Positions 259-64,000 of a stretch of 64,000 nt of DNA are shown here, in pieces. Source of the stretch: Scenedesmus sp. PABB004. Its lineage: Eukaryota. A program made the translations under genes and the position numbers. The stretch is taken from the NCBI GenBank assembly GCA_014905635.1, contig JABVCE010000046.1, forward strand, positions 1 to 64,000, given 5' to 3'. Under the pieces are notes generated by a model. The model ran no database searches, was not told the DNA's origin, and saw nothing but the letters and a program-made list of their open reading frames with translations. Position 1 is the stretch's first letter; every line of letters begins with the position of its first letter.

Positions 259-2119
259 CGCGCCCGCGACGTTGGCCTTCACCGTCGCGGCGTCGGGGCC
301 GACCGCCCACAGCCCGTAGCCCGCGGCCGCGAGGCACGCGGCGACGAGCCCGCGCGCGGCCAGCCCGCTCGCCTTGTCGCCCGGCGCGGAGCGCTCGAAC
401 GAGACAGCAGCGGCGTCGCGAGGTGCGTGATGGGCAGCTGCGGGCGCGTGGGCGGTGTGTGTGGGTGTGTGTGGGTGTGTGTGGGAGGGTGAGGGCGAGG
501 GGCGCGGGTGAGAGGTGCGGCGGGCGGCGGCCGGGCGGGCGGCCCGCGCGGGCGGCGCGGCGCGACGGCAGCCAGGTGCCGCCGCCACTGGCGCCGGCGC
601 CCCCCGCCCATGCGCCGTGCCGCCGCTGCTGCATGTCGCTCGCCTCCTCGCTCATCAGGTTAGGCAGCAGCCAGAAGTGGTGCCCCGTCGCGAGCCAGAC
701 GGCGCCAAACGCGACATAGCGGGCGCCCATCGTCCCCAGCAGCGCGGCGAGCAGCCCCGAGAGGACGTAGAGCACGGCGAGCCTGGCGGCGGCGGCCCAG
801 GGTTCAGGCGGTGGACCCCAGGGTTCGGGGTTCAGGCGGAGGGGACGAGGGCCGCGCCGGGGCGAGGCGCGCGGGGCGAGGCGTGCGGGGCGGCGGCGGC
901 GCGGAAGGCGGCGCCCCAAAAAAAGGGCACCAACGCGCGCTGCTTGCGACCCCCAACCCAAAACCCGCCGCGCCCCGGCGCGCACCTGGCGCCGTGGGCC
1001 GCGAGCGGGAAGAGCGTCGCGCCGAGCGTCGCGAGCACGATCGCCGCGGCGCCGGCGTAGAAGAGCGCGCCGCGGGGGGCCTCGTAGGTGAAGGCGTAGA
1101 ACAGCTCCTCGCCCCACACGGGGGGCTGTTATTTTTGAATTTGAATTTTGTTATTTTGTCATTGGGGGCGTCAGGGTGTGTGGGGTGGGCGGTGGGCGTG
1201 GACGGGCGGTGGGTGGGGCGGGGTGCGGGGTCGCCGGCAGCGGCAGCGCGCGGGGCGAGGGCCAAAGAGCGGCGAAAGGCCACTGCGGCGCGGCGCGCAC
1301 CACGGCGTCGAGGTTGCGCGGCCACTTGACGAGCTTCTTCTTGCCCGGCTTGGGCTTTTTGAACTTGCGCTCCGCCGCGAGCAGCAGGCGGCGCGCGAGC
1401 AGCTGGCCGACGAGGTCAGACACCTGCTCGTCCTGCCCCCGCCCTGGCGGGTGGCGGCGTGCGCGCGGTGTGTGCGGTGCGTGTGTGAGAGGGGGCCTGC
1501 TGCGCGGCGCCAGGCACGCGCGCGCGCCAGTCGCAGCCGCCGCGGCGGGCGCCGCGGGGCGGCGGCGGCGCGCACCCCGGCCCCTGGGGCTTGGTGTGCA
1601 CGTCGAGCAGGGGCCGGCCGCGCAGCCAGCGGGCGAGGTCCTTGCCGCGCACATAGTCCCGCCACTCGAGCTCCTGCGGGGCGCGCAGGACGGCCGGCCG
1701 CGCGCGCGCTCGCAGGACGCAGGCTTGCAGGACGGGGCGCGCGGCGGCTTGCAGGACAGCAGGGCGCGCGGCCGCTGCGCACCAGGGTGCCGCGCTCGCT
1801 GGCACCGCGATCTTGGCGGAGCCGTGCTCCACGCCGCCGCGCTGGCGCAGCGCGTCGGTGACGCCACGCAGCGCCGCTGCCCTGCGCGTGCACGGCAGGT
1901 GCAGCAGCAGCGGCGGCGGGCGGCGCGCGGCGGTTGTGGCCGCGCGCCGCGCGGGGCCCGCGCCGGCGCAGCCGTGCCGCACGGCCACAGCAGGGCGTGC
2001 GGCACGGGCGACGCCGCAGCTGCCGGCCGGGCGGGCGCAACCGCTGGGCTGCTGGGCCCGCCGCGCCGCCAACCGCTGCCGCCGCCGCAGCCGGTGGCGG
2101 CGCCCACCTTGGCCGACAT
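235..2119 (-). CDS. SEC62: Translocon subunit Sec62, multi-exon; 3' end runs off the window start
   Basis: Joined exons read MSAK / ALRGVTDALRQRGGVEHGSAKIA / ELEWRDYVRGKDLARWL / KPKPGKKKLVKWPRNL / FYAFTYE plus TM1 (AAAIVLATLGATLFPLA) / TM2 plus GHHFWLLPNLMSEE / SFERS...VLRYM. These match plant and algal Sec62 motifs (DYxRGKD, LFPL, FWLxPNL). At least one apparent indel near 403. Confidence 0.85.
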
Positions 2120-2436
2120 GGCGCTGCCGCGGTGGTGGTGGCGCTGCCCCTGCTGGGCGCGTGGGCCGAGGGCGCCGCGCGTGAGCAGAAAGGAGCGCGG
2201 GCTACTGCTGCCGCGCTGCTGCCGCCGGCGCGAGGGGCGGGCGGTGCGGGTGCAGCCAGGGGCGCACGAGTGAATGAATCGCGCCGGCGGCGTCGCTGGT
2301 GGCCTGGGCGGGGCCCTGGGCGCGAAGACGAAGCTGAAACAGCGTCTCGACGAGCAGGCGTGCCGCGCCGCGCCGTGGAGGGCGCCATCAGCGCGATCGC
2401 CGCCGCGGAGCCGGGCCCGCGACGCCGCACGCCAGC
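2120..2436. promoter_or_regulatory. Probable bidirectional promoter and 5' UTRs between SEC62 and CASC3
   Basis: Divergent start codons at 2119 (-) and 2437 (+) are only 317 bp apart. Inferred from gene layout. Confidence 0.5.
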
Positions 2437-62200: not shown

Positions 62201-64000
62201 GGTGGGCGTCAATGACGTCATGCGCCGCGCCAAAGGCGCCGGCAAACAGGTGGAACAGCGCCAGGCACGCGCTGCGGCGGCGCGGCGGCCGCGCGGCTCG
62301 TGGGCGGCTCGTGGGCGGCGCACGCGCCCGCACGGGCACGCGCGGGCCTGCGCCCCGCCGCTGGCGGCGGCGGCGGTGGCGGCGCCAGCGCGCGCGCTCC
62401 GCGCGGCCTGGGCCCCACCCCGCACCGCAGCAGCGCCGCGCCGGAGCGCTGCAGGAACGCGACGTCCCACAGCCGGGCGACACACTCAAACGGCATGCCA
62501 GCGCTCGCGAGGCCGCCGAGCAGCCAGCCCGGCAGCGGCTGCGCGGGGCACACGCCGAGCGCGGCCAGGTGGGCGCTGAGGCCGGGCAGGTGCTCGCTGA
62601 GCAGGTGAGTCACCACGCGCTGGTCAACCTGCGCCGACAGCGGCGCCGCGCGCAGCGGCGGGCTGGCGTGAGCGCGGCCACGGCGCACGGCGCGGCGCGG
62701 GCGGCGGCAGGCAGGCGGCGCGCCGCGGGGCCGCGGGCGGGGCGGGGCGGCTGTGGCTCGCCTGCGGCGCGATCATGGCCCCGCTGAAGTATCCAGGCAG
62801 CACGTCGTCCGCCAGCGCCAGCAGGCAGCCCAGCGCAGCGCCCTCGGGGCAGGCCGGCGCCGCGCCGCCGGGGCAGCCCCTGCCGCCGTCCCCGGGGCAG
62901 GCCGGCGCCGCCAGGCATGCCGCGAGCGCGGCGCGCCCCGCGTCGGCGGCGGCGTCAGGGAAGGGCTGCTGCCGGCCGATGCCGGTCAGCACGAGCAGCA
63001 GCGCGCCAGCAACGTAGTTGAGGCCCTGCAGGGGGCGAGGCGCGGCGCGGTGAGCGAGGAGCGGTGGCGCGGAGTGCGGGCCGCACGCGCGCGGCTGGGG
63101 CGCCGCGCCGACAGCGCAGCGCGGCGCGGCGCAGCGCAGCTGCGCCTGTGCGCGTGCCTGCGTGTAGCCCAGGTGGGGCGCTGCGAGGCAGAAGCAGCTC
63201 AGCAGGCGGTGCAGCGACGCCTGGCCCTCGCACGACGACAGCCTGCGGCGGCGCGCGGCAGGGGCGGCCGGCGCCGGCACGAGGCGTCGTGCGGGCGCCG
63301 GCGCACGCGGGGCGCCGCTCGCACGCGGTGGCGACGGCGCGGCGCAGCGCGGCGCACCACTCGTGCCCCGGGAAGGTGCGGTGGCAGTCCTTGCCGATCT
63401 GGGCGTCCCACGTGCGCGCGTGCGGCCGCCACGCGGCGACCTGCTCCGGCGGCAGGCCCAGCGCCGCCGCCGCGGCCGCGGTCGTGCCGTCGCCGCCGGG
63501 CGCGCTGCTCGGGTCGCCGCCGGCGGCGCAGCACTCCTCCAGCAGCCCTGCGGAGCGGAGGCGGCGGCGCTCGTCAGCCTGTTTCGGGCGCCATACCGAA
63601 AGCTGATCCAGCCCCTTGGGCCCCTGCTGCGGCCAGCGAGCCGGCCGCGGCGCCGCTCTCGCCGCTGTCGCGCCGCTGCTCACGCTGCTGCAGCGCCACC
63701 AGCGTGCCGTAGGGCGGCAGCTCGCGGCCGGTGGCGCTCAGGAACTCGGGCCACGCCACGGGGCGCAGCCCGTTGGGGATGCCGCCGCCGACCAGCTCCG
63801 AAAGCTCCGCGAACAGCTCCGGCGCGTGGCGCTCGCCCAGCGCGAGCAGCCGGCGCAGCACAGCCGCCGTCAGCGCGGGGTCGTCCGCGGGCGCAGCGTC
63901 GGTGCCGCCCAGGCCCAGCTGCGTGGCCGCGAGGGCCAGGAAGTCCGCCCAGCGCCGCGTCTGCGCCGCCTCCCGCGCCAGCCAGAGCGGCTGGTACGTC
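59259..64000 (-). CDS. TBC-domain Rab GTPase-activating protein; 5' end outside the window
   Basis: GGIPNGLRPVAW, IGKDCHRTFP (IxxDxxR finger), GYTQ|GLNYVAG (YxQ finger), LPGYF, LLSEHLPGLSAHL and VARLWDVAF, followed by a long Q/A-rich tail. Stop at 59259. Confidence 0.88.

Follow-up and report, generated by a model that had tools for sequence, protein, structure and literature searches.

Protein homology supports frequent GC-AG introns in a 64-kb window of the GC-rich green alga Scenedesmus sp. PABB004

Does the splicing of nuclear genes in a very GC-rich green alga make frequent use of GC, instead of GT, as the first two bases of the intron? The question is raised by positions 1 to 64,000 of contig JABVCE010000046.1 of Scenedesmus sp. 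PABB004 (hereafter the window, meaning the whole 64,000-nt stretch that was analyzed), for which an initial annotation, made from the sequence alone, had claimed a very high frequency of GC-AG introns, with 15 individually listed GC donors and 9 GC-AG introns among the 37 of five traced genes. Using spliced alignment to protein homologs, we found nine GC-AG and 33 GT-AG introns among the 42 that homology fixed (21.4% GC-AG, 95% confidence interval 10-37%), and all nine had been on the earlier list. At an underlying rate of 2%, nine or more GC-AG introns among 42 would occur with a probability of 1.3e-7. The claimed abundance was borne out: the protein alignments confirm that GC-AG introns, as judged from homology, make up roughly a fifth of those in the window, and they point to a real effect.

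Judged by its sequence, the window comes from the nuclear genome of Scenedesmus sp. PABB004, the assembly of which (GCA_014905635.1) spans 39.8 Mb with 78.5% G+C and 7,092 genes (PMC12571836; literature figures here and below are those of the cited passages). The threonine synthase of PABB004 recorded at NCBI (P0003, 500 residues) maps to the window in 13 exons with 0 mismatches, and the PABB004 proteins KCS1 (P0122) and CML21 (P0135), also from NCBI, likewise map without mismatch.

The introns were located with our own protein-profile-to-DNA spliced aligner, for which the profiles were built from homologs of other organisms with the PABB004 protein left out, and each run permitted GT donors alone, GT and GC donors, or GT donors and a decoy dinucleotide. 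The sample behind the rate consists of 42 introns in four conserved genes of this one 64-kb window, namely threonine synthase, KCS1, CML21 and an NAD(P)-binding gene, called SDR in the initial annotation (Table 1; donors are named below by the first base of the intron). When GT and GC were given equal cost, the aligner over-called GC in weakly conserved ends, with two extra GC donors in the CML21 tail and two in the NAD(P)-binding gene. These were counted as not GC, and the CML21 count used here (8 introns, 3 GC-AG) is the one that was stable under a GC penalty. The first GT intron of the NAD(P)-binding gene was fixed by an ab initio gene model and by colinearity with the Pfam profile, not by the closest homolog.

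Table 1 Genes, GC-AG introns and further candidate sites in the window. A slash marks the splice junction, with exon bases in lower case; loss is the cost in BLOSUM units when nearby GC donors are barred; scores are those of the profile alignments
Feature	Position	Strand	Junction	Loss	Details
Threonine synthase gene	54214..58656	+			13 exons, 12 introns (10 GT-AG, 2 GC-AG at 57255, 58324); 55 homologs; score 1806.5 with GT+GC, 1675.9 with GT only
KCS1 gene, 3-ketoacyl-CoA synthase	26137..31269	-			16 introns by homology (14 GT-AG, 2 GC-AG at 29519, 30619); 5 homologs; score 1654.3 with GT+GC, 1617.1 with GT only
CML21 gene, EF-hand	42071..44452	-			8 introns by homology (5 GT-AG, 3 GC-AG at 44323, 43727, 42691); 3 homologs of 267-299 aa; score 935.3 with GT+GC, 731.3 with GT only
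NAD(P)-binding (NAD_binding_10) gene	23850..25352	-			6 introns (4 GT-AG, 2 GC-AG at 24754, 24560); 38 homologs; score 232.2 with GT+GC, 169.3 with GT only
Threonine synthase intron 9	57255..57502	+	cag/GCGCGC...AAGCAG/	30.4	in NCBI model; 55-homolog profile
Threonine synthase intron 12	58324..58530	+	cag/GCGCGG...CCGCAG/	70.6	in NCBI model; picked by profile
KCS1 intron	29264..29519	-	aag/GCGCGG	16.6	in NCBI model P0122; 5-homolog profile; GT alternative GTTTAG
KCS1 intron	30509..30619	-	cag/GCGCGC	20.6	111 nt; homolog profile; GT alternative 9 nt upstream, GTGCTG
CML21 intron 1	43983..44323	-	aag/GCGCGG	41	three-homolog profile
CML21 intron 3	43548..43727	-	cag/GCGAGG	50	180 nt
CML21 intron 7	42468..42691	-	aag/GCGCGG	107	
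NAD(P)-binding gene intron 3	24650..24754	-	cag/GCAGGA		profile and closest homologs P0148, P0160
NAD(P)-binding gene intron 4	24450..24560	-	cag/GCGCGG...CCGCCAG/		colinear with P0148, P0160, 0 indels
HTATIP2-like gene, probable GC-AG intron	50703..50803	+	aag/GCGCGC		ab initio model only
RabGAP-TBC gene, probable GC-AG intron	63026..63157	-	cag/GCACGC		ab initio model; GT alternative GTCGG
TBC gene, probable GC-AG intron	62629..62761	-	cag/GCGAGC		ab initio model; GT alternative GTGCTG
Gene without Pfam family, probable GC-AG intron	16352..16458	-	cag/GCGCGC		ab initio model only
Extra GC-AG candidate, absent from earlier list	60900..61053	-	gcgcag/GCGCGCAC		ab initio only; low-complexity TBC tail; weak
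eIF3j intron region	53240..53560	-			rival donors GC 53560, GT 53482, GC 53389
Sec62, claimed GC donor	643	-	gag/GCGAGC		Pfam Sec62 match ends near here

The GC junctions were costly to remove. Barring GC donors within 150 nt lowered the alignment by 16.6-107 BLOSUM units at each of the seven sites tested, and restricting a model to GT cost each gene between 37 and 204 score units. In each of the five homology tests that allowed a second donor dinucleotide beside GT, GC scored above GG, GA, CG and CC. In the NAD(P)-binding gene, the exons of which are colinear with the Pfam profile, models containing both GC donors were favored by 36 of the 38 homologs, and the GT alternative for intron 3, at 24766, would remove four conserved residues. 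The CML21 junctions agree with the homolog sequences, and a relative's CML21 homolog (P0136), whose EukProt record name resembles that of an open reading frame (ORF) from assembled transcripts, aligns colinearly with the product of splicing. For orthologous introns in relatives, one metagenome scan with threonine synthase gave 80 loci; the matches listed span about the length of the matched protein stretch and thus look intron-free, offering no introns for comparison.

Counted by site, the initial annotation held up for the most part. All 15 listed donors read G-C on the strand given for them (12 on the minus strand); nine are confirmed by homology and another four are supported by the ab initio gene model and by their MAG/GC motif, while 53560 is ambiguous and 643 is unconfirmed. 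As to the 9 of 37 introns in five genes, we verified seven GC-AG introns among 26 (threonine synthase 2/12, CML21 3/8, NAD(P)-binding gene 2/6), and the one of six in the HTATIP2-like gene is supported, whereas the one of six in eIF3j is ambiguous.

The composition of the DNA bears on how these sites are to be read. The window is 80.4% G+C, and GC makes up 21.6% of its dinucleotides against 3.4% for GT, which makes GC 6.3 times commoner. In the threonine synthase gene, G+C reaches 96% at third codon positions and 83% in introns, the intron base frequencies being 0.45 for C and 0.09 for T. All six frames are nearly free of stops, with 540 stop-to-stop ORFs of at least 60 aa accounting for 116,788 of the ~128,000 possible residues, and because all six frames are open, few exons were matched by Pfam even though all 540 ORFs were scanned.

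An ab initio gene model, self-trained and blind to the list of the initial annotation, identified 13 of the 15 donors on that list and reproduced 41 of the 42 validated introns. Its GC-donor share converged to 32-36% from any starting value. In a four-way contest it chose 95 GT, 46 GC, 6 GG and 2 GA donors at a minimum intron length of 50 nt, and 93 GT, 31 GC, 12 GG and 4 GA donors at 85 nt; with GC withheld, it accepted 35-36 GG decoys. Single-site knock-outs in this model were uninformative. When only GC calls of the form MAG/GC were kept, they made up 14 of 109 ab initio donors (~13%). On this basis the window-wide GC-AG rate lies somewhere from ~13% to 21%; window-wide figures taken from the ab initio model are unreliable, and we do not trust its 32-36%. 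The GC donor that the model called at 55088, its sole call without an exonic AG inside a validated gene, is false.

The public gene models contain some of these introns and miss others. In the three comparable genes, which have 33 annotated introns, the NCBI models call three of the seven GC-AG introns, and the threonine synthase model is correct. The KCS1 model has 15 introns instead of the 16 found by homology, since the 111-nt intron at 30619 is read through as coding, and the predicted protein is 563 aa long compared with 503-511 aa in relatives. The CML21 model contains GT-AG introns only and gives 368 aa compared with 267-299 aa in relatives: a GT at 44230 is used instead of the GC at 44323, which adds extra residues, the 180-nt intron at 43727 is read through, and the exon 42764-42692 is skipped, with a misjoin around 42691. 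The excess length of the CML21 and KCS1 models has its cause in GC-AG introns that the annotation reads through or exchanges for weak GT donors. Of the nine GC-AG introns validated, five (24560, 24754, 30619, 43727 and 58324) measure a multiple of three nucleotides and contain no stop in whichever frame they are read, and therefore errors of this kind leave no trace in an ORF check. PABB004 gene sets have already entered comparative studies, for which a re-prediction with GC donors would help.

The GC donors follow a strict pattern. All nine have A at -2 and G at -1 and thus read MAG/GC; +3 is G in eight, +4 is C in seven and +5 is G in all nine. Among the GT donors, +3 is G in all 33, +4 is C in 21 and +5 is G in 32. 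The motifs proposed in the initial annotation, GCGCG and GTGCG, were recovered in seven of nine GC donors and 21 of 33 GT donors, respectively, and so was the exonic AG before every GC donor. Among its suggestions on how such sites might be recognized, a greater reliance on the exonic AG agrees with the counts: AG precedes 9/9 GC donors and 13/33 GT donors (Fisher p=0.0015). Expressed the other way, GC accounts for nine of the 22 donors behind AG (41%) and for none of the 20 donors without it. Counting the positions that could pair with a canonical U1 5' end gave 5.9 per GC donor and 6.4 per GT donor (p=0.23). In the four pre-mRNAs, read on the sense strand, eight of the 13 instances of AG/GCG[CA]G serve as donors, as do 32 of the 179 instances of GTGNG, which makes the GC signal no less specific than the GT signal. 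The GT-only models took 11 GT alternatives, of which ten violate the +3 G or +5 G rule.

The idea of structure-assisted splicing, also put forward in the initial annotation, found no support in predicted folding, as GC-AG introns did not differ from GT-AG introns in folding energy per base, z-scores or end-to-end pairing (p=0.62 to 0.98). U12-type introns were ruled out: the GC type of U12 donor reads GCATCC (PMC1557818), whereas the donors here read GCGCG, GCGAG or GCAGG, with no ATCC after the first two bases.

At the 3' side, CTAAA occurs 16 times in the last 45 nt of introns where 0.9 would be expected (~18-fold), as part of a CCCTAAACCC/CTRAAC motif, and YTRAH in the last 70 nt is found in 16 of 33 GT-AG introns and 0 of 9 GC-AG introns (p=0.008, post hoc). 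Examples of the motif lie at 55888-55927 (+), 56541-56580 (+) and 43800-43839 (-). It looks like a branch site and also like a plant-type telomere repeat, or telo-box.

The most probable explanation of these features is that extreme GC pressure has raised otherwise ordinary U2-type GC-AG introns to an unusual frequency in PABB004's nuclear genome. Strongly GC-biased substitution, as suggested by the 78.5% G+C of the assembly, would repeatedly replace T by C at donor position +2. The C would survive only in otherwise strong sites with A at -2 and G at -1, +3 and +5, that is, in MAG/GCGCG, where the pair with U1 lost at +2 (a C·A mismatch) could be made up by the exonic A and G pairs and by the G residues at +3 and +5. 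The standard U1 and U6, and hence presumably an unmodified spliceosome, would still find such a site. GC-biased substitution pressure, which the initial annotation had not considered, would be the simplest cause, and a mutational origin of the GC donors appears plausible to us.

Could the GC donors instead be an artefact of biased tracing or alignment, or of base errors at +2, the real donors being nearby GT dinucleotides? In DNA in which GC so outnumbers GT, with an ab initio model that takes decoys as readily as it did when GC was withheld (36 GG) and with two of the 15 listed sites failing to hold, the suspicion is natural. We nevertheless regard it as highly improbable, since nine junctions fall at GC in alignments to homolog profiles from other species, splicing of the NAD(P)-binding gene is free of indels against its closest homologs, and every gene loses score when GT is enforced; moreover, GC outscores every decoy, the GT alternatives violate the local GTG[ACG]G consensus, the NCBI annotation independently contains three of the nine GC introns, and random T-to-C errors would not fall solely behind AG. 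An adaptation of the splicing machinery, in which a U1 altered opposite +2, or a changed U1C, Luc7 or U6, would recognize GC and GT equally, is the least unlikely of the alternatives, though unlikely all the same. It would fit a rate at least ten times the 0.4-1.3% of most eukaryotes, and Iwata and Gotoh left base modifications or proteins of the U1 small nuclear ribonucleoprotein open for Aureococcus and Micromonas pusilla (PMC3033335); the lack of the CTRAAC-like 3' motif in GC-AG introns, a post hoc observation, also hints at two intron classes. However, the confinement of GC to donors behind an exonic AG is what an unchanged U1 predicts, whereas an adapted U1 could do without it, and a canonical U1 5' end, AUACUUACCUG, was reported for the GC-AG-rich Aureococcus and for both Micromonas species examined, GC-AG-rich M. 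pusilla among them (PMC3033335). A scan of the window against Rfam at gathering scores gave 0 matches, hence no small nuclear RNA in the window.

A bolder form of this idea takes the 3' motif at face value: GT-AG introns, half of which carry CCCTAAACCC/CTRAAC, and MAG/GC introns, which never do, would be two mechanistically different classes, the latter recognized through a changed early spliceosome (U1, U1C, Luc7, U6 or the reading of the exon end by U5). We consider it a long shot; if true, it would make PABB004 a natural system for re-tuned 5' splice-site recognition. It is also improbable that the GC-AG introns form a functional class of their own, one that is weakly spliced and maintained for the sake of intron retention or of regulated or alternative splicing. 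In other species, GC donors are overrepresented in genes with alternative splicing (PMC2490688), high intron retention goes with GC donors in Emiliania huxleyi (PMC4028052), and retention of the five introns with lengths divisible by three and open frames would add residues without truncating the protein. At 80% G+C, however, nearly every frame is open, so that stop-free introns are expected by chance, and the genes concerned encode housekeeping enzymes.

GC pressure acting on ordinary U2-type introns has difficulties of its own, and the following points count against it or against the rate that it is meant to explain. A neutral +2 position would give ~83% GC donors, compared with the 21% seen overall and the 41% seen behind AG; being so far below that expectation, the GC donors indicate that T at +2 is still selected. 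G+C alone is no predictor, as Micromonas RCC299, with 64% G+C, has only 2.7% GC-AG introns (PMC3033335). Within the window, GC-AG introns are about as GC-rich as GT-AG introns (84.6% vs 81.7%, p=0.30). The ab initio model over-calls GC, with 30 of its 44 GC calls lacking an exonic AG, mostly in low-complexity genes without homologs. Splicing at the exact bases is deduced from protein homology, and the rate comes from four genes.

Abundant GC-AG introns in high-GC algae have been known since 2011, and PABB004 is a further case of this phenomenon, with no new mechanism. Iwata and Gotoh (2011, PMC3033335) reported GC-AG fractions of 39.6% for Aureococcus anophagefferens, 22.2% for Micromonas pusilla and 7.7% for Chlorella sp., and linked them to high G+C. 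PABB004 resembles these algae in its high G+C, in a GC-AG fraction far above 1% and in an acceptor that is still AG. Micromonas pusilla and Chlorella are green algae too, but PABB004 belongs to another class (Chlorophyceae, Sphaeropleales), and its G+C is 78.5% compared with 66-70% in the algae of Iwata and Gotoh; the PABB004 fraction is taken from 42 introns and theirs from genomes. The strict MAG/GC rule was measured in the PABB004 window. In the haptophyte Emiliania huxleyi, 56% of 241 hand-mapped junctions were GC-AG (Feldmesser et al. 2014, PMC4028052). As in PABB004, gene models favoring GT-AG were mispredicted there, and the GC donors were ascribed to high G+C; GC is the majority donor in that species (56-60%), whereas GT is in PABB004 (~79%). 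The pelagophytes Aureococcus and Pelagomonas, with 14-17% GC-AG introns that were likewise ascribed to G+C (bioRxiv 10.1101/2024.10.30.620910), have a similar fraction but only 0.2-0.9 introns per gene, compared with 6-16 in the PABB004 genes.

In animals and plants, GC-AG introns make up 0.4-0.9% of introns and are compensated at other positions of the 5' splice site (Sheth et al. 2006, PMC1557818). The U2-type GC-AG introns of PABB004 share the dinucleotides and the compensation with these and differ in frequency (~21%) and in a GYGCG instead of a GTAAGT consensus. Splice-site G+C in general tracks genome G+C (Frey and Pucker, PMC7072748). Our literature search, which did not extend to supplements, found no paper on the introns of PABB004 or other Scenedesmaceae. 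PABB004 adds a third green-algal class, with the highest G+C so far, to the rule that very GC-rich algae accumulate GC-AG introns, and with 6-16 introns per gene and its strict MAG/GC pattern, it would be convenient for measuring how far 5' splice-site information compensates for the lost +2 pair.

The remaining listed sites lie outside the four genes used for the rate. Those at 16458, 50703, 62761 and 63157 are probably GC-AG introns according to the ab initio model. At 50703, a model confined to GT must skip the preceding 96-nt exon, and the GT alternative for 16458 lies 102 nt upstream and reads GTCGC. The splice at 63157 joins GYTQ to GLNYVAG, a join that we take to restore the YxQG motif of TBC domains. 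On the Pfam TBC profile, the exon before 63157 covers positions 66-91 and the exon after 62761 covers positions 137-195. Sequence searches of the PDB with the TBC stretch and with the HTATIP2 exon returned no usable match.

In eIF3j, stops in all three frames between 53560 and 53240, where G+C is also flat by codon phase, indicate that an intron is present. Its donor at 53560 is ambiguous: the GT at 53482 (GTGGGC), 78 nt downstream of 53560, is consensus-like and keeps the frame. For the claimed Sec62 donor at 643, no frame-consistent acceptor with homology support was found, and the ab initio model takes another donor. Joined in phase 0 to the strong acceptor at 438, the donor at 643 yields a frame rich in Arg and Pro that does not resemble coding sequence.

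The Pfam gene map of the window comprises Sec62, NAD_binding_10, KCS, GYF, EF-hand, LCM, FAST/RAP, HTATIP2-like, eIF3j, threonine synthase and RabGAP-TBC genes. From 2437 to 15805 (+), long ab initio gene models rich in Ala, Gly and Arg have no Pfam match, and one of these models alone contains 13 predicted GC donors, none of them after an exonic AG. In the HTATIP2-like gene, an 81-nt in-frame GT-AG intron at 49467-49547 (+), gtgg/GTGCGG...GCGCAG/gc, splits the GxxGxxG region and is read through by the ab initio model. The segment 46152-49199 (+) holds an open frame of 1,016 aa with weak matches to the FAST_1 and RAP domains. FAST/RAP proteins are of an organelle RNA-binding type and are common in green algae.

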